This document shows positions 274-47,767 of a stretch of DNA of 64,000 bases, one piece after another. Origin of the DNA: Escherichia coli. GTDB lineage: Bacteria; Pseudomonadota; Gammaproteobacteria; Enterobacterales; Enterobacteriaceae. A model generated the notes under the pieces. It did no database searches and was not told the DNA's origin. It saw only the letters and a list, made by a program, of their open reading frames with translations. A program made the translations under genes and the position numbers. The stretch lies in assembly GCF_001677475.2 (NCBI RefSeq), contig NZ_CP015229.1; one strand, 5' to 3'. The stretch's first letter is position 1; each line of letters begins with the position of its first letter.

Positions 274-1440
274 GTGATGCCTGAATCGTTGATGGTTATA
301 CGTTCTTCCTCGACGCTGCGTAAGCATTGGGAATGGATGACGTTCTCCGCAGATAGCGTATCTTCGGTACATACGCTCACAGACGATCTTCCGCTGGAGT
401 CGCTGGCCGATCAGCCCGGTGCCGGAAATGTTCATCTTTTGATCCCACCAGAGGGCCTTTTATATCGTTCCCTCACGCTGCCCAACGCCAAATACAAACT
501 CACCGCACAAACATTACAATGGCTGGCAGAGGAGACGTTACCCGACAACACCCAGGACTGGCACTGGACGGTTGTCGATAAACAAAACGAAAGTGTCGAG
601 GTGATAGGCATTCAGTCGGAGAAACTCAGTCGTTATCTTGAGCGTTTACATACTGCCGGACTCAACGTGACGCGGGTTTTGCCAGATGGCTGCTATCTTC
701 CCTGGGAAGTAAATAGCTGGACTCTGGTTAACCAGCAAACAAGCTGGCTCATTCGCAGTGCCGCACATGCCTTCAACGAACTGGATGAACACTGGTTAAA
801 GCATCTTGCTGCCCAGTTTCCGCCTGAGAATATGCTTTGTTATGGTGTAGCCCCTCACGGCGTTGCAGCGGCCAATCCACTTATCCAGCATCCTGAAATA
901 CAATCACTGAGTTTGTATTCTGCCGATATTGCATTCCAGCGCTATGACATGCTGCATGGTGTTTTTCGTAAACAGAAAACTGTAAGCAAATCGGGAAAAT
1001 GGCTCGCCCGCCTGGCAGTAAGCTGTCTCGTTCTCGCCATTCTTTCTTTTGTTGGCAGCCGGAGCATCGCGCTCTGGCATACGCTTAAGATTGAAGATCA
1101 ACTTCAGCAACAACAGCAAGAAACCTGGCAACGTTATTTCCCGCAGATCAAACGCACCCACAACTTTCGTTTTTACTTTAAGCAGCAACTCGATCAGCAA
1201 TATCCTGAAGCTGTGCCGTTGCTCTATCATTTACAAACACTTCTGCTGGAACACCCTGAACTGCAGTTAATGGAGGCTAACTATAGCCAGAAGCAAAAGT
1301 CGCTGACCTTAAAAATGAGTGCTAAGAGTGAAGCCAATATCGATCGTTTCTGTGAGTTAACACAGTCCTGGCTTCCGATGGAAAAAACAGAAAAAGATCC
1401 GGTCAGTGGTGTATGGACAGTAAGGAACTCAGGGAAATGA
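274..1440 (+). CDS. gspL: Type II secretion system protein GspL
   Basis: 388-aa ORF; length and position match GspL; single predicted TM segment mid-protein; followed by overlapping gspM. Confidence 0.8.
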   Translation: MMPESLMVIRSSSTLRKHWEWMTFSADSVSSVHTLTDDLPLESLADQPGAGNVHLLIPPEGLLYRSLTLPNAKYKLTAQTLQWLAEETLPDNTQDWHWTVVDKQNESVEVIGIQSEKLSRYLERLHTAGLNVTRVLPDGCYLPWEVNSWTLVNQQTSWLIRSAAHAFNELDEHWLKHLAAQFPPENMLCYGVAPHGVAAANPLIQHPEIQSLSLYSADIAFQRYDMLHGVFRKQKTVSKSGKWLARLAVSCLVLAILSFVGSRSIALWHTLKIEDQLQQQQQETWQRYFPQIKRTHNFRFYFKQQLDQQYPEAVPLLYHLQTLLLEHPELQLMEANYSQKQKSLTLKMSAKSEANIDRFCELTQSWLPMEKTEKDPVSGVWTVRNSGK

Positions 1441-1898
1441 TTAAATCATGGTGGGCAGAAAAATCCACATCGGAAAAACAGATCGTTGCGGCACTGGCGG
1501 TTCTCTCGCTCGGCGTTTTTTGTTGGCTTGGGGTGATAAAACCGATAGATACCTACATTGCAGAGCATCAGTCCCACGCGCAAAAAATTAAGAAGGACAT
1601 CAAATGGATGCAGGATCAAGCGAGCACCCATGGTTTACTTGGTCATCCTGCGCTTACGCAGCCCATCAAAAATATCCTTCTCGAGGAAGCAAAACGTGAG
1701 AATTTGACTATCACGCTGGAAAACGGTCCGGACAATACTCTGACAATTCATCCTGTCACAGCTCCCCTCGAAAACGTCTCCCGCTGGCTCACTACGGCAC
1801 AGATAATACACGGTATTGTTATTGAAGATCTTCAGTTTACTCTTGTCGGAAACGAAGAGATCACCCTCAAGCATTTGTCCTTCAGGGAGCAACAATAA
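1437..1898 (+). CDS. gspM: Type II secretion system protein GspM
   Basis: ORF 1413-1898; likely start MIKSWWAEK at 1437 overlapping gspL stop; N-terminal TM helix. Confidence 0.75.
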   Translation: MIKSWWAEKSTSEKQIVAALAVLSLGVFCWLGVIKPIDTYIAEHQSHAQKIKKDIKWMQDQASTHGLLGHPALTQPIKNILLEEAKRENLTITLENGPDNTLTIHPVTAPLENVSRWLTTAQIIHGIVIEDLQFTLVGNEEITLKHLSFREQQ

Positions 1899-2575
1899 TG
1901 GCAATGCTACTGCCGCTCTTCATTCTGGTTGGTTTTATTGCAGGTTATTTTGTTAATGCCATGGCCTATCACCTCTCGCCTTTGGAGGATAAAACGGCGT
2001 TAACGTTTCGCCAGGTATTGGTTCATTTCCGGCAAAAAAAATATGCCTGGAATGATACAGTGCCCCTGATACTTTGTGTTGCTGCTGCTATCGCCTGCGC
2101 CCTGGCACCTTTCACGCCCATCGTGACTGGCGCACTCTTTCTCTATTTCTGTTTCGTACTCACGCTCAGTGTTATTGATTTTCGCACTCAGCTCCTGCCC
2201 GACAAACTCACCTTACCGCTGCTCTGGCTTGGCTTGGTATTTAATGCGCAGTATGGATTAATTGATTTACATGATGCGGTTTACGGCGCGGTAGCGGGCT
2301 ATGGGGTGCTGTGGTGTGTTTACTGGGGCGTCTGGTTAGTTTGTCACAAAGAGGGATTGGGCTACGGTGATTTCAAGCTACTGGCCGCTGCAGGCGCATG
2401 GTGTGGCTGGCAAACGTTGCCAATGATACTGCTGATTGCCTCGCTGGGTGGCATTGGTTACGCCATCGTTTCACAACTTCTGCAACGCCGGACTATAACC
2501 ACTATCGCATTCGGCCCGTGGCTTGCGCTCGGCAGCATGATAAACCTGGGGTATCTGGCCTGGATCTCTTATTAA
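1898..2575 (+). CDS. gspO: Prepilin leader peptidase/N-methyltransferase (A24 family)
   Basis: 225-aa polytopic membrane ORF with GYGDFKLL motif typical of prepilin peptidases; start overlaps gspM stop. Confidence 0.85.
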   Translation: MAMLLPLFILVGFIAGYFVNAMAYHLSPLEDKTALTFRQVLVHFRQKKYAWNDTVPLILCVAAAIACALAPFTPIVTGALFLYFCFVLTLSVIDFRTQLLPDKLTLPLLWLGLVFNAQYGLIDLHDAVYGAVAGYGVLWCVYWGVWLVCHKEGLGYGDFKLLAAAGAWCGWQTLPMILLIASLGGIGYAIVSQLLQRRTITTIAFGPWLALGSMINLGYLAWISY

Positions 2576-2603: not shown

Positions 2604-3080
2604 TCAACCTTCTTCGCGGATCTGTGCTTGCAGATAATTTTGCAGGCCCATCTTCTGAATCAGATCAAGTTCCGTTTCCAGCCAGTCGATATGGCCTTCT
2701 TCATCACGCAAAATTTCTATCATCATATCGCGGCTGACGTAATCATGAACGCTATCGGCATAACCAATTGCCTCACGCAAATTCTTCGCGCCATCCAGCT
2801 CAAGTGCCAGATCAGAACGCAGCATTTCCTCAACATCCTCACCAATGTTCAGTTTGCCCAGGTCCTGTAAATTTGGAAGACCTTCCAGAAAAAGAATGCG
2901 CTCAATATAACGATCGGCGTGTTTCATCTCATCAATGGATTCATGATACTCCACATCATTGAGACGTTTGAGACCCCAGTTTTTAAACATTCGGGCATGG
3001 AGAAAGTACTGATTGATTGCGACAAGCTCATTTCCCAACAGTTTGTTGAGATAATTTATAACCTTAGTATCACCTTTCAT
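2604..3080 (-). CDS. bfr: Bacterioferritin
   Basis: 158-aa ORF starting [36 protein letters not shown], recognised as Bfr. Confidence 0.95.
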
Positions 3081-3151
3081 TTTTTGACTCCTTCGCTTCC
3101 ACTCTTTGAAGCGTAGAACGGCTTACGAGTAAGTCAAAAAACACACTCCGT

Positions 3152-3346
3152 TTATGCGGACTCCTTAAACTCCGGCAACTGCATTAATTCATCCTCCATC
3201 ACTTCACGCGCGGCCCGGACACATTTACCGCACTGATTGCCGACCGGAATAAATTTTTTTAATTGCTGGAACGAGTGAGGAGAAAACTGGCGCACAGCCT
3301 GACGAATTTTTTTATCGCTGATACCATTACAAAGACAAACGTACAT
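3152..3346 (-). CDS. bfd: Bacterioferritin-associated ferredoxin
   Basis: 64-aa ORF MYVCLCNGISD...CGKC with Cys spacing of a 2Fe-2S BFD domain; immediately upstream of bfr. Confidence 0.9.
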   Translation of the reverse strand: MYVCLCNGISDKKIRQAVRQFSPHSFQQLKKFIPVGNQCGKCVRAAREVMEDELMQLPEFKESA

Positions 3347-3514
3347 AGAGACTCCCGTATACTTTCTTCAAAAATAAATGAAAATAGTTCTTATTTCAAT
3401 TACGGAAAGACTCTTTTTTAAGCAAAGAATAGAAATATGAATAAAAATAATGGGCTACCAAAAGTAGCCCATTGACAAAAAATGCGGCGATACCGGAAGG
3501 TATCGCCAACACAT

Positions 3515-6217
3515 TTATTGCTTAGTAAACGGCGCGAAGATTTCGCTAAATGCGTACTTCGGTGCCTGTTCTTTAGTCAGGCCGTGGAATTCCGGAGACA
3601 GGTTAGTGCCGCCTGGCAGGTCGCGCGCGATTGACCAGATACCAACCATACCGAGATTACGCTTCTGCGCATCCTGCATGACCAGACGAGCATCAGAGAG
3701 ATAGAACACCTCGCCCTGAACGTCGTTCACGCCAACCATCGGCGTGGTACCCATCATAGCGTCAATTTCTGCATCGCTCTTGTTGGGATGGAGGCCTTTC
3801 AATTGTGAATGCAGGTTGGCAATCGCAGACGTTGCACACTTACCGTGAATGTTCTGGCCTTCGGTATTTGCAGACTGACAAATCGCGTTACCGTAGTCCA
3901 TTGTCATCACGTTCACACCCGCCAGCTCAACACCTTTCGCTTTGGCATCGCTCAGGACATTCATCCCTTCCGGCGTCAGGCCAGTCGGCAGAATTGGCAA
4001 GGTGTACCAGATAGCAATATCTTTGCCTTCTGACTTCCATTTATCCTGCACTTTCTTCACAGCAAGGTTACGACGTTCAATAGATGCCTGATCCGCAACC
4101 CAGGTGCCTTCGATATCGAAGTCCAGGACTCTGAGGTTCAGGTTATCAACGATGTCATAATAATGCTGCATCAGATCGTCTACGTTCTTACAGGAAGCAG
4201 CCAGCGGAGCGTTGTTAGCACCACCGATAGACAGCATCACATCGCCGCCAGCCTCACGCAGGGCTTTGATTTTGCTGTACTGAGCGTAATTTTGCATACC
4301 ATAAGCGGTACCCCATGTCGGCAGACAGGTGTTCGCATCTTTACTCACCACAAACGCCAGCGTGAAGTGGTTGACGTTATGATTCTTAGCCAGCGCAGCC
4401 AGATCCGGGATCGTATTCAGCGTAAAGTCAACATACGGTGCATAAACGTGTTTCGGCCACGCTTTCTTCGGCGTACCTACACGTTCTTTGGTTCCGGTCC
4501 AGTCAACAAAAACACGCCACGGGTTGCTGTCAGAAGGAGAAACTTTCTGCACTTTACTCTGAGAAATGTAGTTCGCACCGTTAAAGCGAATCAGCGTATC
4601 GCTGGTATAAAGCGTTTCTGGATTAAACTGCGGCGCATTATTCAGCTCTTCGTTGCTATAGCTCTGAGCCTTACCTAACGGCTTCCACGGGCGGCTATTG
4701 CTACCGGTGGCGTTTTGGTTCGCAACCAGAGCAGGGTTGTCACTTTGCGTCCAGAACAGCGCTTCATAAGCCTGCCCATCAACAACAACGCGATCACCTT
4801 TCACGTACACAGTGGATGCGGACCATGCTTTCGCCGGTTCGTATTTCTTCCACGGGTTATCACCGCCTGGGACAAAGCCCCATGCGTCTTGATCGACAGA
4901 AGTTTTATAATGTGCATCGTTATAATCTACGATGCTGTCCGCGCTGTACGCTTTGCTGGCCTGGAAACCATCCGCAACAATGACGCCGCCGTTATCAATT
5001 TCACAGGTAGTCGGGTTACCGTACTGACTCAATTCCGCAGCGGTAGCTGTACGCACGAGACGCCATGGGTTATTGGAGTTTTCAGCGCTGGTACCCCGTG
5101 GGCAATCTTTAGACCCAACCCACCAGGCGTTCTTGTAAACATTACCATTGAAAATAACATGGTAAATTTCGCTACCTTCCTGGCCGCTCCACGCTTGCAA
5201 TGAGTAATCGTTACCGCTATCCGCTGGTGTTGATGGCTCGTTGTTATCCGGAGTTGGGGTAACCGGAGTTTCTGGTGTTTCCGGAGTTGGATCAACCGGA
5301 GTCACAGCACCGCCATTATTATCCGGCTTAACGGAACAGGAGCCAGGGTTACCATACTGACTGATTTCTGTTGCCGTTGCCGTGCGAACATAACGCCATG
5401 GGTTACTGGCATCGTTTTCTTTCGCATCGCCTGGGCAATTTGCCGCGCCTACCCACCAGGCGTTCTTATAAATGCCGCCGTTGTAGATAACGTACCATGT
5501 AGAAGAACCTTCCTGACCTTTCCAGGCTACGACAGCATAGTTGTCGTTTGACTTATCAGCTGGGGCTGGCTGAACATCAGGAGCCGGTTTAACGTCCGGT
5601 GCCGGTTTCACATCCGGTGCAGGCTGTGGTGCTGAAGTACAGGACTGTGGATTACTGGTTTGCGTGATTTCCGTTGCCGTAGCGGCACGAACATAACGCC
5701 ATGGGTTGCTGGCATCATTGCCTTTCGCATCACCCGGGCAGTTAGAAGAGGCTACCCACCAGGCATTTTTATATACCGCACCATTAAAGACGACATACCA
5801 GGTCTGACCGCCCTGCTGTTTATTCCAGGCAACTACAGAAGAATTAGACGGAACAGTGCCCTGTGCTGGTGTAGCCGAACCGCCATTAGCCGGCGTATTG
5901 GATGCAGGCGTATTTGAATTTGAAGAAGATGAGCTGCCGCTCTTTTCGCAGGAAAGTGTATTGCCATACTGACTAATTTCAGCAGCTGTCGCGGTACGCT
6001 TTAAACGCCACGGGTTAGTTGCATCATTTGCTTTCGCTTTTCCCGGGCAATTTGTAGAAGAAACCCACCAGGCATTTTCATAAATTTTGCCATCGAAAAT
6101 AACCTGATATTTATTACCACCTTGTTGGTTATTCCATGCTTCCATTGCCAATGCTGGCAGAGCGGAACACACCAGCCCCATACCAATCATAGATTTAGTA
6201 AATATATTTAATTTCAT
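3515..6217 (-). CDS. chiA: Periplasmic endochitinase with N-terminal signal peptide and tandem carbohydrate-binding modules
   Basis: 900-aa ORF; signal peptide; four ~65-aa tandem repeats (AWxxQQGG...NAWWV...NPWR...C) plus further chitin-binding-like modules; C-terminal catalytic domain with DFDIEG motif. Confidence 0.9.
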   Translation of the reverse strand: MKLNIFTKSMIGMGLVCSALPALAMEAWNNQQGGNKYQVIFDGKIYENAWWVSSTNCPGKAKANDATNPWRLKRTATAAEISQYGNTLSCEKSGSSSSSNSNTPASNTPANGGSATPAQGTVPSNSSVVAWNKQQGGQTWYVVFNGAVYKNAWWVASSNCPGDAKGNDASNPWRYVRAATATEITQTSNPQSCTSAPQPAPDVKPAPDVKPAPDVQPAPADKSNDNYAVVAWKGQEGSSTWYVIYNGGIYKNAWWVGAANCPGDAKENDASNPWRYVRTATATEISQYGNPGSCSVKPDNNGGAVTPVDPTPETPETPVTPTPDNNEPSTPADSGNDYSLQAWSGQEGSEIYHVIFNGNVYKNAWWVGSKDCPRGTSAENSNNPWRLVRTATAAELSQYGNPTTCEIDNGGVIVADGFQASKAYSADSIVDYNDAHYKTSVDQDAWGFVPGGDNPWKKYEPAKAWSASTVYVKGDRVVVDGQAYEALFWTQSDNPALVANQNATGSNSRPWKPLGKAQSYSNEELNNAPQFNPETLYTSDTLIRFNGANYISQSKVQKVSPSDSNPWRVFVDWTGTKERVGTPKKAWPKHVYAPYVDFTLNTIPDLAALAKNHNVNHFTLAFVVSKDANTCLPTWGTAYGMQNYAQYSKIKALREAGGDVMLSIGGANNAPLAASCKNVDDLMQHYYDIVDNLNLRVLDFDIEGTWVADQASIERRNLAVKKVQDKWKSEGKDIAIWYTLPILPTGLTPEGMNVLSDAKAKGVELAGVNVMTMDYGNAICQSANTEGQNIHGKCATSAIANLHSQLKGLHPNKSDAEIDAMMGTTPMVGVNDVQGEVFYLSDARLVMQDAQKRNLGMVGIWSIARDLPGGTNLSPEFHGLTKEQAPKYAFSEIFAPFTKQ

Positions 6218-6458
6218 TATAATCCCTTGTGACGTAAAAACTGCAAAACAGAAGTCCTACGCAGGAATTATTTACGTTTTACGAGAACCCTTCAATATGA
6301 ATTAAATTACGGCATTAAAAATAAGAAAAAAGCCTGACAAATGAAGCATTTTAAAAACAGAAACATTCACATTTAAAATATTAAATTGAATTGATATTTT
6401 AAATATGAATAATTTATTCGTTCTGACAGTACGAATAAATTATGCAGTCAACAAATGC

Positions 6459-6484
6459 AAAAAGGGCGCCGAAGCGCCCTTTTC
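6459..6484 (-). terminator. Rho-independent terminator downstream of tufA
   Basis: GC stem gggcgc/gcgccc with cgaa loop followed by T-run on minus strand, 25 bp past tufA stop. Confidence 0.75.
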
Positions 6485-6508
6485 AATTCAAAACTAATTA
6501 ACGTGTAA

Positions 6509-7750
<1,242 letters not shown>

Positions 7751-7763: not shown

Positions 7764-9890
<2,127 letters not shown>

Positions 9891-28931: not shown

Positions 28932-30113
28932 ATGACTAACAGCAATCGCATCAAGCTCACATGGATTAGCTTTCTCTCCTACGCACTGACCGGTGCGTTG
29001 GTTATTGTCACCGGGATGGTGATGGGAAATATCGCCGATTATTTCAATCTGCCTGTTTCCAGTATGAGTAACACCTTCACCTTCCTCAACGCCGGCATTT
29101 TAATCTCTATCTTCCTCAACGCCTGGCTGATGGAAATCGTCCCGTTGAAAACGCAGTTACGTTTTGGCTTTCTCCTGATGGTGCTGGCGGTTGCCGGTTT
29201 GATGTTCAGCCACAGCCTGGCGCTGTTCTCGGCGGCGATGTTCATTCTCGGGGTGGTCAGCGGCATCACCATGTCGATTGGTACATTCCTGATAACACAA
29301 ATGTATGAAGGGCGTCAGCGCGGTTCCCGCCTGTTATTTACCGACTCCTTCTTCAGTATGGCTGGGATGATTTTCCCAATGATCGCCGCGTTTCTACTGG
29401 CGCGCAGCATTGAGTGGTACTGGGTTTATGCCTGCATCGGGTTGGTGTATGTCGCTATTTTTATTCTGACCTTCGGCTGTGAGTTCCCGGCGCTGGGCAA
29501 ACATGCGCCAAAAACGGATGCTCCGGTAGAGAAAGAAAAGTGGGGGATCGGCGTACTGTTTCTCTCTATTGCGGCGCTGTGCTACATCCTCGGTCAGTTA
29601 GGTTTTATCTCCTGGGTGCCTGAGTATGCCAAAGGCCTGGGCATGAGCCTAAACGACGCGGGCACGCTGGTAAGTAACTTCTGGATGTCATACATGGTCG
29701 GTATGTGGGCGTTCAGCTTTATTCTTCGCTTCTTTGATTTGCAACGTATTCTGACCGTACTGGCTGGTCTGGCTGCGATTCTGATGTACGTCTTTAACAC
29801 CGGAACACCAGCACATATGGCGTGGTCAATTCTCGCTCTGGGCTTCTTCTCCAGCGCGATCTATACCACCATCATCACCCTGGGTTCACAGCAGACCAAA
29901 GTACCGTCGCCAAAACTGGTTAACTTTGTCCTGACCTGCGGGACCATCGGTACTATGTTGACCTTTGTGGTTACCGGCCCGATTGTTGAACATAGCGGTC
30001 CGCAGGCGGCACTGCTTACAGCAAACGGTCTGTACGCTGTCGTCTTTGTGATGTGCTTCCTGTTAGGTTTCGTCAGCCGTCACCGTCAGCATAACACCCT
30101 GACCTCTCATTAA
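28932..30113 (+). CDS. tsgA: MFS-type membrane transporter TsgA
   Basis: 393-aa 12-TM-like [24 protein letters not shown]. Confidence 0.9.
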
Positions 30114-30273
30114 TTGTTCATGCCGGGCGGCACTATCGTCGTCCGGCCTTTTCCTCTCTTACCCTGCTACGTACATCTATTTCTATAAATCCGTTCAATT
30201 TGTCTGTTTTTTGCACAAACATGAAATGTCAGACAATTCCGTGACTTAAGAAAATTTATACAAATCAGCAATA

Positions 30274-30289
30274 TACCCCTTAAGGAGTA
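30274..30289 (+). promoter_or_regulatory. NarL/NarP 7-2-7 inverted heptamer site of nirB promoter (TACCCCT-TA-AGGAGTA)
   Basis: Read directly; centred ~27 bp upstream of FNR site as in the described pnir architecture. Confidence 0.75.
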
Positions 30290-30302
30290 TATAAAGGTGA
30301 AT

Positions 30303-30316
30303 TTGATTTACATCAA
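30303..30316 (+). promoter_or_regulatory. FNR binding site (TTGAT-TTAC-ATCAA) of nirB promoter
   Basis: Perfect FNR consensus; -10 hexamer TAAGGT at 30338-30343 places site near -41.5. Confidence 0.9.
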
Positions 30317-30374
30317 TAAGCGGGGTTGCTGAATCGTTAAGGTAGGCGGTAATAGAAAAGAAATCGAGGCAAAA

Positions 30375-32918
30375 ATGAGCAAAGTCAGACTCGCAATTAT
30401 CGGTAACGGTATGGTCGGCCATCGCTTTATCGAAGATCTTCTTGATAAATCTGATGCGGCCAACTTTGATATTACCGTTTTCTGTGAAGAACCGCGCATC
30501 GCTTATGACCGCGTACACCTCTCGTCTTACTTCTCTCACCACACCGCCGAAGAGCTGTCGCTGGTGCGCGAAGGCTTCTACGAGAAACACGGCATCAAAG
30601 TTCTGGTCGGCGAACGCGCTATCACCATCAACCGTCAGGAGAAGGTGATTCACTCCAGCGCCGGGCGCACCGTTTTTTATGACAAGCTGATCATGGCGAC
30701 CGGTTCCTACCCGTGGATCCCGCCAATCAAAGGTTCTGATACTCAGGACTGCTTTGTCTATCGCACCATTGAAGACCTCAACGCCATTGAATCCTGTGCC
30801 CGTCGCAGCAAACGCGGTGCCGTTGTTGGTGGCGGCCTGTTAGGTCTGGAAGCCGCTGGCGCGCTGAAAAACTTAGGCATTGAAACCCACGTTATCGAAT
30901 TTGCCCCTATGCTGATGGCGGAACAGCTTGATCAGATGGGCGGCGAGCAGCTACGTCGCAAAATCGAAAGTATGGGTGTGCGCGTTCACACCAGCAAAAA
31001 CACCCTTGAGATTGTGCAGGAAGGTGTCGAAGCGCGTAAAACCATGCGTTTTGCCGACGGCAGCGAGCTGGAAGTTGACTTTATCGTCTTCTCTACCGGT
31101 ATCCGTCCGCGCGATAAGCTGGCAACCCAGTGTGGTCTGGACGTTGCTCCGCGTGGGGGTATTGTCATTAATGATTCCTGCCAGACTTCCGATCCGGATA
31201 TCTACGCCATCGGTGAATGCGCAAGCTGGAACAACCGTGTATTTGGTCTGGTAGCACCAGGCTACAAAATGGCGCAGGTCGCCGTTGACCACATTCTCGG
31301 TAGCGAAAACGCCTTTGAAGGTGCTGACCTTAGCGCCAAGCTGAAACTGCTGGGCGTAGACGTAGGTGGTATTGGTGATGCGCATGGTCGCACGCCTGGC
31401 GCACGTAGCTACGTTTACCTCGACGAAAGCAAAGAGATCTACAAACGCCTGATTGTCAGCGAAGACAACAAAACCCTGCTCGGTGCGGTACTGGTGGGCG
31501 ATACCAGCGACTACGGCAACCTGCTGCAACTGGTGCTGAACGCTATCGAGCTGCCGGAAAACCCGGATTCTCTGATTCTGCCGGCGCACTCTGGTAGCGG
31601 TAAGCCGTCTATCGGTGTTGATAAACTGCCGGACAGCGCGCAAATCTGCTCCTGCTTCGACGTCACCAAAGGTGATCTGATTGCTGCCATCAACAAAGGC
31701 TGCCACACCGTTGCGGCGCTGAAAGCCGAAACCAAAGCGGGTACTGGCTGCGGTGGCTGTATCCCGCTGGTCACTCAGGTACTGAACGCGGAACTGGCGA
31801 AACAGGGCATCGAAGTTAACAACAACCTGTGCGAACACTTTGCTTATTCGCGTCAGGAACTGTTCCATTTAATCCGCGTTGAAGGCATTAAAACCTTCGA
31901 AGAACTGCTGGCGAAACACGGCAAAGGCTACGGTTGTGAAGTTTGTAAACCGACCGTCGGTTCGCTGCTGGCCTCCTGCTGGAACGAATACATTCTGAAA
32001 CCGGAACATACTCCGCTGCAGGATTCTAACGATAACTTCCTCGCTAACATCCAGAAAGACGGCACCTACTCGGTGATCCCGCGTTCTCCGGGCGGTGAAA
32101 TCACCCCGGAAGGGCTGATGGCGGTAGGTCGTATCGCGCGTGAATTTAATCTCTACACCAAAATCACCGGCTCCCAGCGCCTGGCGATGTTTGGCGCACA
32201 GAAAGACGATCTGCCGGAGATCTGGCGTCAGCTGATTGAAGCCGGCTTCGAAACCGGTCATGCCTATGCGAAAGCACTGCGTATGGCGAAAACCTGCGTG
32301 GGTAGCACCTGGTGCCGCTACGGCGTTGGCGACAGCGTCGGCCTCGGCGTGGAACTGGAAAACCGCTACAAAGGCATCCGTACGCCGCACAAAATGAAGT
32401 TCGGTGTCTCCGGCTGTACCCGTGAATGTTCAGAAGCTCAGGGTAAAGACGTAGGTATTATCGCCACCGAAAAAGGCTGGAACCTGTACGTTTGCGGTAA
32501 CGGCGGCATGAAACCGCGTCATGCAGATCTGCTTGCAGCGGATATCGATCGCGAAACGCTGATCAAATATCTCGACCGCTTCATGATGTTCTACATCCGT
32601 ACCGCCGACAAACTGACGCGTACCGCGCCGTGGTTAGAAAACCTTGAAGGCGGCATCGATTACCTGAAAGCGGTGATCATTGACGACAAACTGGGGCTGA
32701 ACGCACATCTGGAAGAAGAGATGGCGCGCCTGCGTGAAGCGGTAGTATGTGAGTGGACTGAAACGGTCAATACACCGTCCGCGCAGACTCGCTTCAAACA
32801 CTTCATCAACAGCGACAAGCGTGACCCGAACGTGCAGATGGTGCCAGAGCGCGAACAGCACCGTCCGGCAACGCCGTATGAACGTATCCCGGTAACTCTG
32901 GTGGAGGACAACGCATGA
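30375..32918 (+). CDS. nirB: NADH-dependent nitrite reductase large subunit
   Basis: 847-aa ORF MSKVRLAIIGNGMVGHRFIEDLL; FAD/NAD Rossmann motifs, BFD-like 2Fe-2S Cys cluster, sirohaem/4Fe-4S domain. Confidence 0.97.
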   Translation: MSKVRLAIIGNGMVGHRFIEDLLDKSDAANFDITVFCEEPRIAYDRVHLSSYFSHHTAEELSLVREGFYEKHGIKVLVGERAITINRQEKVIHSSAGRTVFYDKLIMATGSYPWIPPIKGSDTQDCFVYRTIEDLNAIESCARRSKRGAVVGGGLLGLEAAGALKNLGIETHVIEFAPMLMAEQLDQMGGEQLRRKIESMGVRVHTSKNTLEIVQEGVEARKTMRFADGSELEVDFIVFSTGIRPRDKLATQCGLDVAPRGGIVINDSCQTSDPDIYAIGECASWNNRVFGLVAPGYKMAQVAVDHILGSENAFEGADLSAKLKLLGVDVGGIGDAHGRTPGARSYVYLDESKEIYKRLIVSEDNKTLLGAVLVGDTSDYGNLLQLVLNAIELPENPDSLILPAHSGSGKPSIGVDKLPDSAQICSCFDVTKGDLIAAINKGCHTVAALKAETKAGTGCGGCIPLVTQVLNAELAKQGIEVNNNLCEHFAYSRQELFHLIRVEGIKTFEELLAKHGKGYGCEVCKPTVGSLLASCWNEYILKPEHTPLQDSNDNFLANIQKDGTYSVIPRSPGGEITPEGLMAVGRIAREFNLYTKITGSQRLAMFGAQKDDLPEIWRQLIEAGFETGHAYAKALRMAKTCVGSTWCRYGVGDSVGLGVELENRYKGIRTPHKMKFGVSGCTRECSEAQGKDVGIIATEKGWNLYVCGNGGMKPRHADLLAADIDRETLIKYLDRFMMFYIRTADKLTRTAPWLENLEGGIDYLKAVIIDDKLGLNAHLEEEMARLREAVVCEWTETVNTPSAQTRFKHFINSDKRDPNVQMVPEREQHRPATPYERIPVTLVEDNA

Positions 32919-33241
32919 GCCAGTGGAAAGACATCTGCAAAATCGATGACATCCTGCCTGAAACCGGCGTCTGCGCGCTGTTAGGTGACGAGCAGGTAGC
33001 AATTTTCCGCCCGTATCACAGCGACCAGGTGTTTGCGATCAGCAACATCGACCCGTTCTTCGAGTCCAGTGTGCTGTCACGCGGGCTGATTGCTGAACAC
33101 CAGGGCGAGCTGTGGGTCGCCAGCCCGCTGAAAAAACAGCGTTTTCGCTTAAGTGATGGCTTGTGCATGGAAGACGAACAGTTTTCCGTAAAGCATTACG
33201 AAGCACGAGTGAAAGACGGCGTGGTACAGCTACGCGGTTAA
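32915..33241 (+). CDS. nirD: Nitrite reductase small subunit (Rieske-like)
   Basis: 108-aa ORF; start overlaps nirB stop. Confidence 0.93.
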   Translation: MSQWKDICKIDDILPETGVCALLGDEQVAIFRPYHSDQVFAISNIDPFFESSVLSRGLIAEHQGELWVASPLKKQRFRLSDGLCMEDEQFSVKHYEARVKDGVVQLRG

Positions 33242-33366
33242 TGTTTTAACGGGAGGCGCAATGCCTCCCCTTTTTGCATGGTCCTGTAATAACCTTCGGT
33301 ATATTGCAGGACATTTTTTAAACTTTTTGTTTTATTTTTTGTTTTTATTTTTTAAAGGATAATCAA

Positions 33367-34173
33367 ATGTTTACAGACACTATTAATAAGTGTGCGGCTA
33401 ACGCTGCGCGCATTGCACGCCTGTCGGCAAATAACCCGCTCGGCTTCTGGGTCAGCTCCGCAATGGCGGGCGCGTATGTGGGTCTTGGGATCATCCTGAT
33501 TTTCACGCTCGGTAATTTGCTCGATCCGTCCATACGTCCTCTGGTGATGGGCGCGACCTTTGGTATCGCCTTAACGCTGGTGATTATCGCCGGTTCTGAA
33601 CTGTTCACCGGACACACCATGTTCCTCACCTTTGGAGTGAAAGCGGGCACTATCAGCCACGGGCAAATGTGGGCAATCCTGCCGCAAACCTGGCTGGGTA
33701 ACCTGGTCGGTTCCGTCTTCGTTGCCATGCTCTATAGCTGGGGTGGCGGTAGCCTGCTGCCGGTAGATACCAGCATCGTTCACTCCGTCGCGCTGGCAAA
33801 AACCACTGCACCGGCAATGGTACTGTTCTTCAAAGGTGCATTGTGTAACTGGCTGGTTTGCCTGGCAATCTGGATGGCGCTGCGCACTGAAGGGGCGGCG
33901 AAATTTATCGCTATCTGGTGGTGTCTGCTGGCATTTATCGCGTCCGGCTACGAGCACTCCATCGCTAACATGACGCTGTTCGCCCTCTCCTGGTTCGGCA
34001 ACCACAGCGAAGCCTACACGCTGGCGGGTATTGGTCATAACCTGCTGTGGGTGACGCTGGGTAATACTTTATCGGGTGCCGTATTCATGGGATTGGGTTA
34101 TTGGTATGCTACGCCGAAAGCGAATCGTCCGGTTGCGGACAAATTTAATCAAACTGAAACAGCTGCCGGTTAA
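33367..34173 (+). CDS. nirC: Nitrite transporter (formate/nitrite transporter family)
   Basis: 268-aa polytopic ORF in nir operon. Confidence 0.93.
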   Translation: MFTDTINKCAANAARIARLSANNPLGFWVSSAMAGAYVGLGIILIFTLGNLLDPSIRPLVMGATFGIALTLVIIAGSELFTGHTMFLTFGVKAGTISHGQMWAILPQTWLGNLVGSVFVAMLYSWGGGSLLPVDTSIVHSVALAKTTAPAMVLFFKGALCNWLVCLAIWMALRTEGAAKFIAIWWCLLAFIASGYEHSIANMTLFALSWFGNHSEAYTLAGIGHNLLWVTLGNTLSGAVFMGLGYWYATPKANRPVADKFNQTETAAG

Positions 34174-34191
34174 TTACTAAGGGGTTTTTAC

Positions 34192-35565
34192 GTGGATCAT
34201 TTGCCTATATTTTGCCAATTACGCGATCGCGACTGTCTGATTGTCGGCGGTGGTGATGTCGCGGAACGCAAAGCAAGGTTGCTGTTAGACGCGGGTGCTC
34301 GCTTAACGGTGAATGCATTAGCGTTTATTCCACAGTTCACCGCATGGGCAGATGCAGGCATGTTAACCCTCGTCGAAGGGCCATTTGATGAAAGCCTTCT
34401 CGACTCCTGCTGGCTGGCGATTGCTGCGACGGATGATGACGCGCTTAACCAGCGCGTCAGTGAAACCGCTGAAGCTCGTCGCATCTTCTGTAACGTGGTC
34501 GATGCGCCGAAAGCCGCCAGCTTTATTATGCCGTCAATTATTGACCGCTCACCGCTCATGGTAGCGGTCTCCTCTGGCGGCACCTCTCCGGTTCTGGCGC
34601 GCCTGTTGCGTGAAAAACTTGAATCACTGCTGCCGCTGCATCTGGGTCAGGTGGCGAAATATGCCGGGCAGTTACGTGGTCGGGTAAAACAGCAGTTCGC
34701 TACAATGGGTGAACGTCGCCGTTTCTGGGAAAAACTGTTCGTTAATGACCGCCTGGCGCAGTCGCTGGCAAACAACGATCAGAAAGCCATTACTGAAACG
34801 ACCGAACAGTTAATCAACGAACCGCTCGACCATCGCGGTGAAGTGGTGCTGGTTGGCGCAGGTCCGGGCGATGCCGGGCTGCTGACACTGAAGGGTCTGC
34901 AACAAATTCAGCAGGCAGATGTGGTGGTCTACGACCGTCTGGTTTCTGACGATATTATGAATCTGGTACGCCGCGATGCTGATCGCGTTTTCGTCGGCAA
35001 ACGCGCGGGATACCACTGCGTACCGCAGGAAGAGATTAACCAGATCCTGCTGCGGGAAGCGCAAAAAGGCAAACGCGTGGTGCGGCTGAAAGGCGGCGAT
35101 CCGTTTATTTTTGGCCGTGGTGGCGAAGAGCTGGAAACACTGTGCAACGCGGGTATTCCGTTCTCGGTGGTTCCGGGTATTACCGCAGCTTCTGGTTGCT
35201 CTGCCTATTCGGGTATTCCGCTCACGCATCGCGATTATGCTCAGAGCGTGCGCTTAATTACCGGACACTTAAAAACTGGTGGCGAGCTGGACTGGGAAAA
35301 CCTGGCGGCAGAAAAACAAACGCTGGTGTTCTATATGGGACTGAATCAGGCTGCGACTATTCAGCAAAAGCTGATTGAACACGGTATGCCTGGCGAAATG
35401 CCGGTGGCAATTGTCGAAAACGGAACAGCAGTCACGCAGCGCGTGATTGACGGTACGCTCACACAGCTGGGCGAACTGGCGCAGCAAATGAACAGTCCAT
35501 CGCTAATTATTATTGGTCGGGTTGTTGGCCTGCGCGATAAACTGAACTGGTTCTCCAACCATTAA
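34192..35565 (+). CDS. cysG: Sirohaem synthase (multifunctional uroporphyrinogen-III methyltransferase/dehydrogenase/ferrochelatase)
   Basis: 457-aa ORF; N-terminal NAD-binding [11 protein letters not shown]-terminal SAM methyltransferase [10 protein letters not shown]. Confidence 0.96.
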
Positions 35566-35573
35566 TTTAACCA

Positions 35574-35597
35574 GGGCCAGAGAATTCTGGCCTTTTT
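35574..35597 (+). terminator. Rho-independent terminator after cysG
   Basis: ggccagag-aatt-ctggcc hairpin followed by TTTTT. Confidence 0.7.
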
Positions 35598-35819
35598 CGT
35601 TTACAACTCTCTTTATATATTCAGCAGATAAAAATATAACTCATTAACAAAAATCATTTGTTTTTGTCCCGTTATATTCACCGTTACAGCGAATTACAAA
35701 ATTAAGTCATTCGCTCACTGACGCCAATTAAATATTCCTGTATCGTTCTAAATGAGCAGTCTGCTTATATTCATATAATCAATGAATATTAATTAATATA
35801 TAATACATAGGGAATGTAA

Positions 35820-35987
35820 ATGAACAAATTTATTAAAGTTGCACTGGTAGGTGCAGTACTGGCTACGTTAACTGCATGTACTGGTCATATTGAAAACCGT
35901 GATAAGAACTGCTCTTACGACTACCTGCTGCACCCGGCAATTTCTATTTCTAAAATCATTGGCGGTTGCGGTCCTACTGCACAGTAA
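35820..35987 (+). CDS. yhfL: Small lipoprotein YhfL (55 aa)
   Basis: Hand-translated MNKFIKVALVGAVLATLTACTGHIENRDKNCSYDYLLHPAISISKIIGGCGPTAQ; lipobox LTAC; not in ORF track (<60 aa). Confidence 0.8.
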   Translation: MNKFIKVALVGAVLATLTACTGHIENRDKNCSYDYLLHPAISISKIIGGCGPTAQ

Positions 35988-36231
35988 GTCTCTGACTGAA
36001 AGCGGCTAACACCGGTTTAATTGCCCGACGCCCTCTGGATTTTCCGAGGGCGTATTTGTTTCTACGTCCTTCTTGCTCCCCGCCCGTAAAAATATTTTCA
36101 CTTTAATTTCAATTGGATAACTACATCCATTAGCCACAGCGCGATCCTGTGCGAAATTTTGTGATCTTCCTCCACATTACATAACATCATATGTTGTTAT
36201 ATTCATCATGCATTGTCATGTTACCTTTTAA

Positions 36232-37620
<1,389 letters not shown>

Positions 37621-37640
37621 TGTTATCTGGAGAAAATAAA

Positions 37641-38663
37641 ATGTTGGATATTGATAAAAGCACCGTGGACTTTCTGGTCACCGAAAATATGGTTCAGGAA
37701 GTGGAAAAAGTTCTCAGCCATGACGTTCCGCTGGTGCACACCATCGTGGAAGAGATGGTGAAGCGCAACATTGATCGTATTTATTTCGTTGCCTGCGGAT
37801 CGCCACTCAACGCGGCGCAAACGGCGAAACATCTGGCGGATCGCTTTTCCGATCTTCAGGTCTACGCCATTTCCGGCTGGGAGTTCTGCGATAACACCCC
37901 GTATCGCCTCGACGATCGTTGCGCAGTAATTGGCGTTTCTGACTACGGTAAAACAGAAGAGGTAATCAAAGCGCTGGAGCTGGGGCGGGCCTGCGGCGCG
38001 CTCACTGCGGCATTCACCAAACGCGCGGATAGCCCGATTACCTCGGCGGCGGAATTTAGCATTGATTATCAGGCCGACTGTATTTGGGAAATTCATCTGC
38101 TGCTCTGCTACAGCGTGGTGCTGGAGATGATCACCCGCCTCGCGCCGAACGCGGAAATCGGCAAGATCAAAAACGATCTCAAGCTGTTGCCGAATGCGCT
38201 CGGTCATCTGGTACGCACCTGGGAAGAAAAAGGCCGCCAGCTTGGTGAACTGGCCAGCCAGTGGCCGATGATTTATACCGTTGCTGCGGGTCCGCTGCGT
38301 CCGCTGGGTTACAAAGAAGGCATTGTAACGCTAATGGAATTTACCTGGACGCACGGCTGCGTGCTCGAAAGCGGAGAGTTCCGCCACGGCCCACTGGAAA
38401 TTGTCGAGCCGGGCATTCCGTTCCTATTCCTGCTCGGCAATGACGAAAGTCGCCACACCACCGAACGCGCCATTAACTTTGTAAAACAGCGTACTGACAA
38501 CGTGATCGTCATTGATTACGCCGAAATTTCGCAAGGGCTGCACCCGTGGCTGGCACCGTTCCTGATGTTCGTGCCAATGGAGTGGCTCTGCTACTACCTG
38601 TCTATTTACAAAGATCACAACCCGGATGAACGCCGCTATTACGGTGGTCTGGTGGAATATTAA
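37641..38663 (+). CDS. frlB: Fructoselysine-6-phosphate deglycase (SIS domains)
   Basis: Probable start [12 protein letters not shown] at 37641 (340 aa). Confidence 0.9.
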
Positions 38664-38712
38664 TCCCTCTCCCGGCCCGGCAACGGGCCGGATTTACGCA
38701 AGGAGTTACCCG

Positions 38713-39543
38713 ATGAAAACAGGTATGTTTACCTGCGGCCACCAGCGGCTGCCTATTGAACACGCATTCCGTGATGCAAGCGAGCTGGGTTACGACGGCA
38801 TCGAAATTTGGGGCGGTCGCCCGCACGCGTTCGCGCCGGACTTAAAAGCGGGCGGCATCAAACAGATCAAGGCGCTGGCGCAGACGTATCAGATGCCGAT
38901 TATCGGTTATACGCCAGAAACCAACGGCTATCCGTATAACATGATGCTGGGCGATGAACATATGCGTCGCGAAAGCCTGGACATGATCAAGCTGGCGATG
39001 GATATGGCAAAAGAGATGAACGCCGGTTATACGCTGATTTCTGCGGCCCACGCGGGCTATCTCACGCCACCTAATGTTATCTGGGGACGGCTGGCAGAGA
39101 ACCTAAGCGAACTGTGTGAGTACGCGGAAAACATCGGCATGGATCTAATCCTCGAACCGTTAACACCGTATGAATCGAACGTCGTGTGTAATGCTAATGA
39201 TGTGCTTCATGCGCTGGCGCTGGTGCCTTCGCCGCGCCTGTTCAGCATGGTCGACATTTGCGCGCCGTATGTCCAGTCGGAACCGGTGATGAGTTATTTC
39301 GACAAACTGAGCGATAAATTGCGTCATTTGCATATTGTCGACAGCGACGGGGCCAGCGACACGCATTACATTCCCGGCGAAGGCAAGATGCCGCTGCGGG
39401 AGTTGATGCGCGATATTATTGATCGGGGCTACGACGGTTACTGCACGGTGGAACTGGTAACGATGTATATGAACGAACCCAGACTCTACGCTCGCCAGGC
39501 GCTGGAACGCTTTCGCGCGCTGCTGCCGGAGGATGCGAGATGA
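38713..39543 (+). CDS. frlC: Fructoselysine 3-epimerase (xylose-isomerase-like TIM barrel)
   Basis: Probable start [19 protein letters not shown] at 38713 (276 aa). Confidence 0.88.
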
Positions 39544-40325
39544 AAAACCTGGCGACAATCGGCGATAACTGCGTCGATATCTACCCGCAACTGAATAAAG
39601 CGTTTTCTGGCGGTAATGCGGTGAACGTGGCGGTGTACTGCACTCGCTACGGCATACAACCCGGATGCATTACCTGGGTGGGTGACGATGACTACGGCAC
39701 AAAGCTGAAGCAGGATCTTGCCCGCATGGGCGTCGATATCAGCCATGTCCATACGAAACACGGCGTTACCGCACAAACTCAGGTGGAACTGCACGACAAC
39801 GATCGCGTTTTTGGCGACTACACCGAAGGCGTGATGGCCGACTTTGCCCTGAGCGAAGAGGATTACGCCTGGCTGGCGCAGTATGACATTGTGCACGCGG
39901 CAATCTGGGGACATGCGGAGGACGCATTCCCGCACCTGCACGCAGCGGGCAAACTTACCGCTTTCGACTTCTCCGACAAGTGGGACAGCCCGCTCTGGCA
40001 GACACTGGTGCCGCATCTCGATTTTGCCTTTGCCTCCGCGCCGCAAGAAGACGAAGCGTTACGTCTGAAGATGAAGGCGATTGTTGCCCGTGGCGCAGGC
40101 GTGGTGATTGTCACGCTGGGCGAAAACAGCAGCATTGCCTGGGATGGCGCGCAGTTCTGGCGTCAGGCTCCTGAACCGGTGACGGTTATCGACACCATGG
40201 GTGCCGGAGATTCGTTCATTGCCGGATTCCTTTGCGGCTGGTCTGCGGGGATGACATTACCGCAGGCGATGGCGCAGGGAACGGCGTGCGCGGCACAAAC
40301 TATTCAGTACCACGGTGCCTGGTAG
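39540..40325 (+). CDS. frlD: Fructoselysine 6-kinase (PfkB family)
   Basis: 261-aa ORF with PfkB motifs (DTMGAGDSF); start overlaps frlC stop. Confidence 0.9.
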
Positions 40326-40424
40326 GCATAACGTTGGCGTGAGCATCTTCACGCCAACGTGCTGTTACTTGCCGGAAAACGACCCTATAATCCGTGTAAT
40401 TCATTCTTTATTTCAGGGTCGATT

Positions 40425-41156
40425 ATGTCAGCTACGGACCGCTACTCTCATCAACTCCTCTACGCTACCGTCCGCCAGCGGCTGCTGGATGATATCGCGC
40501 AGGGGGTTTACCAGGCCGGGCAACAGATCCCTACCGAAAACGAGCTTTGTACGCAATATAACGTCAGCCGCATTACCATTCGCAAAGCCATCAGCGACTT
40601 AGTGGCAGACGGCGTACTGATCCGCTGGCAGGGCAAAGGCACCTTTGTACAAAGCCAGAAAGTTGAAAACGCCCTGCTTACTGTCAGTGGTTTTACCGAT
40701 TTTGGCGTCTCACAAGGCAAGGCGACGAAAGAGAAAGTGATCGAGCAGGAACGGGTCAGCGCCGCGCCGTTTTGCGAAAAGCTGAACATCCCCGGAAACA
40801 GCGAAGTGTTCCATCTCTGCCGGGTGATGTATCTCGATAAAGAGCCGCTGTTTATTGATAGTTCATGGATCCCGCTGTCGCGTTATCCTGACTTTGATGA
40901 GATTTACGCCGAAGGAAGCTCCACCTATCAGTTATTTCAGGAGCGTTTTGACACGCGAGTGGTCAGCGATAAAAAGACCATCGATATTTTTGCCGCCACC
41001 CGCCCGCAGGCAAAATGGCTGAAATGCGAACTGGGCGAACCGCTGTTTCGCATCAGCAAAATCGCCTTTGATCAGAATGACAAACCGGTGCACGTCTCCG
41101 AACTCTTCTGCCGCGCCAATCGCATCACCTTAACGATTGATAATAAAAGACATTAA
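40425..41156 (+). CDS. frlR: GntR-family (HTH + UTRA) transcriptional regulator of frl operon
   Basis: Probable start MSATDRYSHQLLYATVRQRLLDDI at 40425 (243 aa). Confidence 0.88.
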   Translation: MSATDRYSHQLLYATVRQRLLDDIAQGVYQAGQQIPTENELCTQYNVSRITIRKAISDLVADGVLIRWQGKGTFVQSQKVENALLTVSGFTDFGVSQGKATKEKVIEQERVSAAPFCEKLNIPGNSEVFHLCRVMYLDKEPLFIDSSWIPLSRYPDFDEIYAEGSSTYQLFQERFDTRVVSDKKTIDIFAATRPQAKWLKCELGEPLFRISKIAFDQNDKPVHVSELFCRANRITLTIDNKRH

Positions 41157-41159
41157 CCG

Positions 41160-41212
41160 TAGGCCGGATAAGATGCGCCAGCATCGCATCCGGCGATGCT
41201 GGCGCGTTGAGG
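41160..41212. repeat. REP (repetitive extragenic palindromic) element
   Basis: gccggataagatgcgccagcatcgcatccggc-type imperfect palindrome between convergent frlR and yhfS. Confidence 0.7.
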
Positions 41213-41263
41213 GGACCGTCCGGCGCTGAATTTAGCTTGATTGCCGAACGGGGCTATCCAGCA

Positions 41264-42349: not shown

Positions 42350-42360
42350 AGGTGCCTTCC

Positions 42361-43665: not shown

Positions 43666-43676
43666 AGTCGTGCCTT

Positions 43677-44030: not shown

Positions 44031-44040
44031 GAGTCTGTCC

Positions 44041-47751: not shown

Positions 47752-47767
47752 TTCAGATGCCTTTGGT

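Follow-up and report, generated by a model that had tools for sequence, protein, structure and literature searches.

The 64,000-nucleotide stretch of Escherichia coli DNA analysed here (the window) very probably contains, in the gene chiA, the determinant of a secreted GH18 endochitinase that has a Sec signal and seven binding modules, that carries these modules on repeat linkers with rare clonal length alleles, that is expressed from an AT-rich promoter silenced by H-NS, and that is exported by Gsp. The identity of chiA, its silencing and the Gsp (T2SS-alpha) export of its product have essentially been known since 2000, and E. coli associated with Crohn's disease has been the subject of work on the binding domains, so there is little gain in this for basic biology; small additions to the known picture are that the linker repeats have other lengths in a few strains and that modules 1-4 belong to a rare family for which there is no Pfam model.

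The chiA locus

The chiA open reading frame occupies positions 3515..6217 on the minus strand (900 aa, stop codon included in the coordinates), and all features given below lie on that strand unless another is named. The matching E. coli gene, at 97-99% identity, is annotated in RefSeq as 'chiA: bifunctional chitinase/lysozyme', and NCBIfam assigns no family to ChiA. The intrinsic terminator of tufA (6458..6485) forms the upstream boundary of the chiA cassette, and two terminator-like hairpins (3449..3508) lie immediately downstream of the chiA stop codon; an Rfam scan of 3300-6600 at E ≤ 1 gave no match. The first-pass annotation, which was made from the sequence before this work, had chiA adjoining gsp secretion genes, and this is the case: gspL, gspM and gspO, the end of the T2SS-alpha operon, are on the plus strand at 274..2575, with bfr and bfd between them and chiA.

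The E. coli K-12 protein (YheB; WP_000773156.1, 897 aa) is encoded by the same gene in the same position (bfd-chiA-tufA, by gspC-O) and has the same layout of seven modules plus a GH18 domain. The window and K-12 genes have 98.85% nucleotide identity over aligned positions and their products differ by 12 amino-acid substitutions; the window ChiA has 900 rather than 897 residues because of an extra ETP unit in linker 3 (below), which is common to B2-type strains.

Domain architecture of ChiA

ChiA is laid out as follows: a signal peptide, four 66-aa modules with Ser/Pro/Thr linkers, three CBM5/12-type modules and the GH18 domain. The putative Sec-type signal peptide (aa 1-24, MKLNIFTKSMIGMGLVCSALPALA; 6146..6217) was read by eye from the sequence and has typical n-, h- and c-regions and an Ala-Leu-Ala cleavage motif. 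The expectation that a catalytic domain and further binding-like modules follow the N-terminal repeats was borne out. The catalytic domain (aa 587-898; 3524..4459) scores 40.9 bits with the Pfam GH18 profile PF00704 over aa 612-808 (cutoff 29.6 bits), and GH18 chitinases in the PDB align over aa 587-898 (9buf_A, E 1.9e-46; 2dsk_A, E 6.8e-38). Its DFDIE sequence (aa 699-703; 4109-4123), the catalytic DxDxE motif with the acid/base Glu, aligns to the DFDIE of 9buf_A. Module 6 (aa 462-515; 4673..4834) is a canonical CBM5/12 domain (39.5 bits against a gathering score of 26.2 for PF02839) and matches the chitin-binding domain of S. griseus ChiC (2d49). Module 5 (aa 418-459; 4841..4966) matches CBM_5_12 weakly and below the cutoff (18.7 bits, E 0.0017), and module 7 (aa 528-570; 4508..4636), which carries the polymorphic position 548, is CBM5/12-like by pattern only, having no Pfam CBM_5_12 match at E ≤ 10. 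Seven chitin-binding domains have been reported in ChiA, the last of them under the name 'domain 7' (PMC11486038).

A protein so built would be a secreted GH18 endochitinase with a Sec signal, in which seven small carbohydrate-binding modules precede the catalytic domain on flexible low-complexity linkers. Multivalent binding would keep it on GlcNAc-containing polymers, namely chitin, to which the AIEC literature adds mucin and N-glycosylated CHI3L1 (binding of ChiA to CHI3L1/mucin is reported in PMC11486038).

The upstream region and the link to Gsp

The upstream/promoter region of chiA (6218..6457) is as strongly AT-rich as it had appeared at first sight. Its GC content is 0.271, compared with 0.52 for the 64-kb window as a whole; just 0.1% of 240-bp windows reach so low a value, and the minimum of the entire window, 0.242, falls here. 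The upstream region, which is 291 bp in 10 of the 10 sequences compared, has two sigma-70-like sites (6377-6348 and 6295-6267), a ribosome-binding site of sequence AAGGGA and two inverted repeats of 20 nt. By its base composition the putative promoter region fits the reported H-NS silencing of chiA: a passage of PMC5797941, citing Francetic et al. 2000, speaks of 'ChiA, a product of another H-NS silenced gene', as being exported by Gsp. Transcription would start within the 240-bp AT-rich region and, with H-NS silencing it as the literature describes, chiA would be cryptic in laboratory culture.

On the basis of the literature, ChiA would be exported by the neighbouring Gsp (T2SS-alpha) machinery; an excerpt of PMC3707838 names a 'Chitinase-secreting T2SS-alpha' and calls GspO 'functional in facilitating ChiA secretion'. 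Of 5,426 complete E. coli genomes, 3,122 have gspLMO and about 3,121-3,125 have chiA (a comparison of totals), and in the one O157:H7 genome inspected chiA is absent and the gsp operon is nearly all gone (a truncated gspO remnant is left), while bfr-bfd is kept. The near-equal totals, taken with this one inspected genome, fit a functional link between chiA and gsp, and such comparative-genomic support is a modest practical addition.

The N-terminal modules 1-4

Modules 1 (aa 25-90; 5948..6145), 2 (aa 128-193; 5639..5836), 3 (aa 229-294; 5336..5533) and 4 (aa 340-405; 5003..5200; 'chitin-binding domain 4' of the literature) are CBM5/12-like domains of the same type as the N-terminal domain (NTD) of the Yersinia entomophaga chitinase Chi2. 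Modules 2-4 share 56-60% identity with module 1, and 26 columns, including AW, NAWWV, CP, NPWR, ATA-E and C, are invariant. The first-pass annotation had described four tandem repeats of ~65 aa; four 66-aa modules with the pattern that it listed are present, but they are not strictly tandem because linkers of 35-45 aa lie between them. None of the four matches Pfam CBM_5_12 (PF02839), even at E ≤ 10.

Module 3 was the copy used for structure modelling, and its AF2 model has a pLDDT of 95.1. The best Foldseek match of this model is Y. entomophaga Chi2 (9c4k_C; TM 0.81, 39% identity over 69 columns), its fold matches are chitin-binding CBM5/12 domains, and the sequence profile of the modules matches Chi2 residues 25-92 with an E value of 1.3e-17. 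As judged from profile and model, modules 1-4 and the docking domain at the N-terminus of Chi2 are homologous; in the predicted structure a beta core of the CBM5/12 kind, which bears a conserved Trp-Trp pair, is joined to a C-terminal helix, and two conserved Cys presumably form a disulfide. The Trp-Trp pair is largely kept across the family (consensus NAWWV), and hhalign places the AWW of the modules on the LFW of module 6 (30% probability, E 5.6e-4), which itself aligns to the KWW of the ChiC chitin-binding domain; we infer a role for this pair in modules 1-4.

A first search for homologues of the module profile gave nothing but short fragments from E. coli/Shigella; diverse full-length relatives were not among them. 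The family is rare, with only 46 cluster representatives among 1.84 billion proteins in an exhaustive representative search, and in the homologues the module is nearly always on a GH18 chitinase, beginning at residue ~25. The toxin-complex-type members (Chi2 and proteins of Xenorhabdus and Endobugula) have lost the Cys pair and have YW in place of WW.

Relative to the CBM5/CBM12 modules (S. griseus ChiC ChBD 2d49, S. marcescens ChiB CBM5, PF02839), modules 1-4 are ~20 residues longer and have the C-terminal helix and two conserved Cys. We know of no four-fold array of Chi2-NTD-type modules in Vibrio cholerae ChiA2, Legionella ChiA or Salmonella ChiA. These enzymes resemble E. coli ChiA by description, since the literature presents them as secreted or virulence-associated GH18 enzymes whose targets are mucin or host glycans and some of which are exported by a T2SS. 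The Chi2 domain (9c4k chain C; 6ogd_C sequence) is, like modules 1-4, N-terminal on a GH18 chitinase, but it is a single copy, without the conserved Cys pair and with YW for WW. The catalytic domain that it accompanies is, unlike that of ChiA, a GH18 of the classical type that matches Pfam strongly, and the domain is reported to dock Chi2 on the TcA subunit of a toxin complex, whereas the immediate chiA locus of E. coli holds no such toxin partner.

Linkers and their length variation

Each of the three linkers that separate modules 1-4 contains a short repeat. Linker 1 (aa 91-127; 5837..5947) is Ser/Asn/Thr-rich and includes the Ser tract SGSSSSSNSN, correctly remarked on at the outset and located at aa 93-102 (5912-5941), together with a 15-bp repeat for TPASN (about 5888-5911), of which 25 E. 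coli genomes have 3 copies. Linker 2 (aa 194-228; 5534..5638) is Pro/Ala/Asp-rich and encodes APDVKP-APDVKP-APDVQP in three imperfect 18-bp units (5567..5620; units at 5620-5603, 5602-5585 and 5584-5567), for which TRF gives a period of 18, 2.7 copies, 83% matches and a score of 68 over 5573-5620. This is the 18-bp repeat that had been placed at about 5580-5640, so the repeat is real but those coordinates were ~15-20 nt off. Linker 3 (aa 295-339; 5201..5335) is Pro/Thr-rich and has a 9-bp ETP duplication (about 5267-5284) that 1078 genomes have and 2037 lack.

A comparison of repeat copy number across strains had been suggested as a check on the first-pass annotation, and we surveyed it in the about 3,121 chiA-bearing genomes among the 5,426 complete E. 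coli genomes, with variants verified by alignment. Length polymorphism was found but is rare: the 18-bp unit has 3 copies in ~98.5% of these genomes, 2 copies in ~29 and 4 copies in 17. The 4-copy alleles of cq9 and MB51 duplicate different units (GATGTG and GACGTT, respectively) and are therefore independent, so that this allele arose at least twice. Twenty-five of the ~29 two-copy genomes also carry the same 15-bp gain, with 100% identity. The commonest length polymorphism of chiA is not in the 18-bp unit but is the 9-bp ETP indel of linker 3. Repeat indels occur in all three linkers and, in the alignments, every linker indel is in frame. A 5-copy allele of the 18-bp repeat was considered, but under the 80% identity band for the native query there was no record, hence no evidence for it. 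Changes in module number by recombination are unlikely, the module DNA copies having a mean column identity of 77% without a long identical stretch and chiA presence counts being equal over the linker 2 and linker 3 regions. A full-text literature search for published work on the linker repeats of E. coli chiA returned nothing relevant.

The linker-repeat variation is slow and clonal rather than phase variation, and slippage is its probable mutational mechanism. The imperfect 15-, 18- and 9-bp tandem repeats would sometimes gain or lose one unit in frame, through replication slippage or unequal recombination, and the outcome would be rare length alleles that are inherited clonally; nothing points to a function in rapid switching. 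The three in-frame indel sites explain the 894, 897, 899, 900 and 903-aa length variants of ChiA in databases, and they shift residue numbering between K-12 and LF82-type alleles. The published polymorphic positions are all invariant when read on K-12 numbering, and it is the 900-aa numbering that fits. With the latter the window ChiA has K, K, A and V at module 4 positions 362, 370, 378 and 388, a mixed 'pathogenic polymorphism' pattern in which K362, K370 and A378 are K-12-like, V388 is LF82/CFT073-like and A548 is a third state.

Alternative interpretations

Could modules 1-4 be mainly protein-protein docking, adhesion or secretion-targeting domains and not chitin binders? The precedent is the sole solved homologue, the Chi2 N-terminal domain, which anchors the chitinase to the YenTc toxin shell and is described as a protein-docking domain, not a sugar binder, that docks onto TcA by beta-strand addition (PMC12705794). 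The absence of a Pfam CBM match to modules 1-4 and the position of the module in homologues, where it is almost always the first mature domain, right after the signal peptide, are in keeping with such a role, as is the report that ChiA binds the host protein CHI3L1 with an affinity that polymorphic residues of module 4 affect (PMC11486038). That binding, however, is reported in the same paper to be via the N-glycan of CHI3L1, and the chitin-binding nature of the fold matches, the largely retained Trp-Trp pair that aligns with the aromatic pair of the ChiC domain and the near-constant association with GH18 chitinases all argue for carbohydrate binding. In addition, the loss of the Cys pair and the change of WW to YW suggest that the toxin-complex members are a derived, co-opted branch. 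We consider a mainly docking role improbable, and prefer to read modules 1-4 as carbohydrate-binding modules of the CBM5/12 kind.

The variation in the linkers allows two other readings of the gene, both of them much less probable than a docking role. It is very unlikely that the repeats are a contingency (hypermutable) locus, in which frequent gain and loss of the 18-bp unit adaptively tunes the reach or antigenicity of ChiA between or within strains. Copy number does vary between 2, 3 and 4 units, the 4-copy allele has at least two origins and in-frame indels are present in all three linkers, but ~98.5% of the ~3,121 genomes have exactly 3 units, three imperfect units with 83% matches are neither numerous nor alike enough for frequent slippage, the variants are clonal (as in the shared, identical 15-bp gain of 25 of the ~29 two-copy genomes) and the 9-bp indel has just two states across the species. 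Phase-variable loci change at high frequency within lineages and usually have many perfect units, neither of which is seen for the 18-bp repeat, and the linker changes never alter the reading frame and therefore give no on/off switching. Even less credible is that chiA is a decaying cryptic remnant without current function, its repeats and their variation being neutral debris. The gene is reported in a passage of PMC5797941 to be silent in the laboratory, about 42% of complete genomes lack it, and in some strains it is a pseudogene, disrupted by IS1, by a nonsense codon or by a frameshift; its function is therefore dispensable. Nevertheless the 900-aa open reading frame is intact, all linker indels are in frame, in vivo phenotypes of AIEC chiA mutants have been published (PMC11486038), and decay is refuted by the purifying selection seen on chiA, for which dN/dS comes to 0.09-0.18 over the whole gene and to about 0-0.06 for the GH18 domain, with lineages having dS of up to 0.12. 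Slow, clonal length change in a selected gene remains our reading of the linkers.

Implications

A more speculative idea, which we hold as possible but on balance doubtful, is that modules 1-4 are an uncatalogued CBM5/12 offshoot (beta core plus helix and disulfide) with two functions, binding glycans in E. coli ChiA and, after co-option, serving as a protein-docking adaptor in toxin-complex chitinases, and that their four-fold amplification in Escherichia and the in-frame linker-length alleles would adjust the multivalent hold of ChiA on host mucus or CHI3L1. If this is true, it would give the 'pathogenic polymorphisms' of ChiA from AIEC a place on a defined structural surface. That the N-terminal 'chitin-binding domains' of ChiA and the docking domain of YenTc Chi2 share a family could in turn aid work on AIEC ChiA-host interaction or on Tc toxin assembly.

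Architecture of ChiA and its locus

The chiA open reading frame occupies 3515-6217 on the minus strand and encodes a 900-residue protein, annotated in the matched E. coli genomes as "chiA: bifunctional chitinase/lysozyme". It lies in the K-12-type arrangement gsp-bfr-bfd-chiA-tufA (gspL, gspM and gspO at 274-2575, plus strand; bfr, 2604-3080; bfd, 3152-3346; tufA, 6509-7738; followed by fusA, 7764-9878). Of the 5,426 complete E. coli genomes searched by megablast, about 3,125 have the chiA region, between bfd and tuf. The top match to window positions 30000-50000 among the same genomes has only 97.2% identity over 20 kb, compared with up to 99.1% for gspLMO and about 99% for chiA; the window may come from a divergent Escherichia lineage, or its gsp-chiA region may be mosaic.

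The only Pfam matches in ChiA are CBM_5_12 (two stretches) and GH18 (40.9 bits; cutoff 29.6), and a scan against NCBIfam returned no family. The C-terminal 312 residues align with the solved GH18 chitinases 9buf_A (E 1.9e-46) and 2dsk_A (E 6.8e-38), and the catalytic motif DFDIE is kept. Upstream of this domain, a Sec signal peptide predicted by reading the sequence (residues 1-24, ending Ala-Leu-Ala) is followed by four 66-residue modules (modules 1-4: residues 25-90, 128-193, 229-294 and 340-405), separated by linker 1 (37 residues, Ser/Asn-rich), linker 2 (35 residues, Pro/Ala/Asp-rich) and linker 3 (45 residues, Pro/Thr-rich). Modules 2-4 each share 56-60% identity with module 1, and the 26 positions invariant among the four agree with the residue pattern described in the first-pass annotation. 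Three further modules are a weak CBM_5_12 match (module 5, 418-459), a clear one (module 6, 462-515) and one recognized by pattern only (module 7, 528-570). The 4 + 3 modules are the seven "chitin-binding domains" of the AIEC literature, in which domain 4 contains positions 362-388 and domain 7 position 548 (PMC11486038; PMC6393329); these published polymorphic positions agree with the numbering of the 900-residue protein.

Family and fold of modules 1-4

Modules 1-4 have no Pfam match, even in a scan of the modules by themselves at E<=10. A profile built from all four matches one solved protein, Chi2, a GH18 chitinase of the Yersinia entomophaga YenTc toxin complex (residues 25-92, E 1.3e-17), and when 1.84 billion cluster representatives were searched exhaustively by profile, only 46 proteins were found at E<=0.001. 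The full-length relatives are nearly all GH18 chitinases in which the module, mostly in single copy, starts near residue 25, immediately past the signal peptide; the highest copy number among them is four, as in Escherichia. They occur in the Enterobacterales genera Superficieibacter, Chimaeribacter, Scandinavium, Yersinia and Xenorhabdus, and also in Aeromonas schubertii, Candidatus Endobugula and a myxobacterial MAG.

Module 3, modelled with AlphaFold2 from a 34-sequence alignment, gave a confident structure (pLDDT 95.1) with three strands and a C-terminal helix. Its top Foldseek match is 9c4k_C, which is Chi2 in the YenTc holotoxin (TM 0.81, 39% identity), with CBM5/12 domains ranked below it. 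In hhalign the AWW of the module falls on module 6's LFW (30% probability), and module 6 itself pairs with the KWW of the ChiC chitin-binding domain from Streptomyces griseus. Our conclusion is that modules 1-4 form a subtype derived from CBM5/12 and extended by a helix plus two conserved Cys residues, CBM5/12 membership being suggested at the level of fold only. The Chi2 N-terminal docking domain and modules 1-4 form one rare family, which has no Pfam model, and each looks derived from CBM5/12. The Chi2 homologue is reported to act in protein docking onto the toxin shell, and the YenTc structure paper does not call it carbohydrate-binding (PMC12705794). Because the Cys pair has gone from the toxin-type copies and their WW pair is altered, we infer that they are a co-opted branch; "binding module" is the best reading of modules 1-4 in ChiA.

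Length variation in the linkers

At 5573-5620, in linker 2, Tandem Repeats Finder reports 2.7 copies of period 18 with 83% matches; the units, on the minus strand, are 5620-5603 (APDVKP), 5602-5585 (APDVKP) and 5584-5567 (APDVQP). When the native sequence and synthetic 2-copy and 4-copy queries were searched against all complete E. coli genomes, the region was present in about 3,121, almost all of them gapless and full-length on the 3-copy form, while 29 and 17 records matched the 2-copy and 4-copy queries, respectively, end to end; nine retrieved and aligned alleles bear out these variants. In strain cq9 the 4-copy allele duplicates the GATGTG unit and in strain MB51 a different one, GACGTT, so these are independent events. 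In linker 1 a 15-bp TPASN unit has been gained (window 5888-5911; 25 genomes carry 3 copies, at 100% identity), and nearly all of these genomes also carry the 2-copy 18-bp allele, which indicates one lineage. In linker 3 a 9-bp ETP unit (window 5267-5284) is present in 1,078 "long" genomes (as in the window allele, CFT073, Nissle and ST131) and absent from 2,037 "short" ones (as in K-12); because of it, residue numbers in K-12-type and LF82-type ChiA differ by 3.

The prediction that the 18-bp repeat would vary in length among strains was thus right in kind, with 2, 3 and 4 copies found, but length changes are rare (about 1.5% for this repeat), clonal and always in frame, and for these reasons we rejected a contingency locus. 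The linker variation is best read as ordinary slippage in low-complexity DNA. The DNA copies of the modules (77% column identity) are too diverged to be likely to promote frequent recombination between them.

Window ChiA and its K-12 counterpart are separated by 12 substitutions and by the ETP insertion of the window allele, whose residues at the "pathogenic polymorphism" sites of AIEC form a mixed pattern (K362, K370, A378, V388, A548). The 2-copy 18-bp allele is found on the LF82/CFT073-type ("pathogenic") haplotype (Q362, E370, V378, V388, E548), and the 4-copy alleles are on K-12-like, ETP-short backgrounds (in cq9, K, K, A, V and V at 362, 370, 378, 388 and 548).

Selection, presence and absence of chiA

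Nei-Gojobori dN/dS, estimated at dS up to 0.12, is 0.09-0.18 over the whole gene; the binding region gives 0.11-0.24 and the GH18 domain 0-0.06. Judged from these sequences, chiA is maintained by selection where present. Inactivated copies have an internal stop (ET650), a 1-nt frameshift (MB51) or IS1 insertions (STS63-2-E and B27); these loci are L007 616-3309, L003 2084-4794 and hits H2 and H14.

An O157:H7 genome (locus L010 8871-9052) has the gsp operon down to a truncated prepilin-peptidase gene and keeps the intervening bfr-bfd, without chiA; about 73 unrelated nt replace roughly window 3401-6456, from directly past the tufA terminator, a segment spanning the chiA terminators, open reading frame and AT-rich region. 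About 42% of complete genomes lack chiA together with its terminators and AT-rich promoter. This replacement and the presence counts thus make chiA and its AT-rich promoter a discrete presence/absence cassette, which appears to travel with the secretion operon: gspLMO (at least 80% coverage) is present in 3,122 and chiA in about 3,121-3,125 of 5,426 genomes (totals over the whole set), near-equal counts that suggest the two are kept or lost together. The export route proposed for ChiA through the neighboring gsp genes is in print, the system having been named "chitinase-secreting T2SS-alpha" and GspO found functional in ChiA secretion (PMC3707838).

The AT-rich upstream region

GC content is 0.271 over the 240 bp at 6218-6457 (window mean 0.52), and the lowest 240-bp value in the window (0.242) falls in this region, which is bounded by the tufA terminator (6485-6458). 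A second AT-rich block, at 35537-35924, has a comparable minimum (0.262, 240-bp windows). On its coding strand the upstream region has two sigma-70-like sites, and it also carries an AAGGGA ribosome-binding site; it is exactly 291 bp long in 10 of 10 sequences compared, with 6-10 substitutions, and matches no Rfam family. Two adjacent, imperfect 20-nt inverted repeats (6365-6384/6391-6410 and 6406-6425/6427-6446, each 90% complementary) are candidate regulator sites, for the most part conserved across nine E. coli strains. The suggested nucleoid-protein silencing is likewise published: PMC5797941, citing Francetic et al. 2000, describes chiA as silenced by H-NS.

Since each proposal of the first-pass annotation was confirmed here or is already in print, the observation is real, correctly interpreted and already known, and its interest is low. 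What the analysis adds is small: a catalogue of linker indels, the near-equal chiA and gsp counts and the family assignment of modules 1-4.
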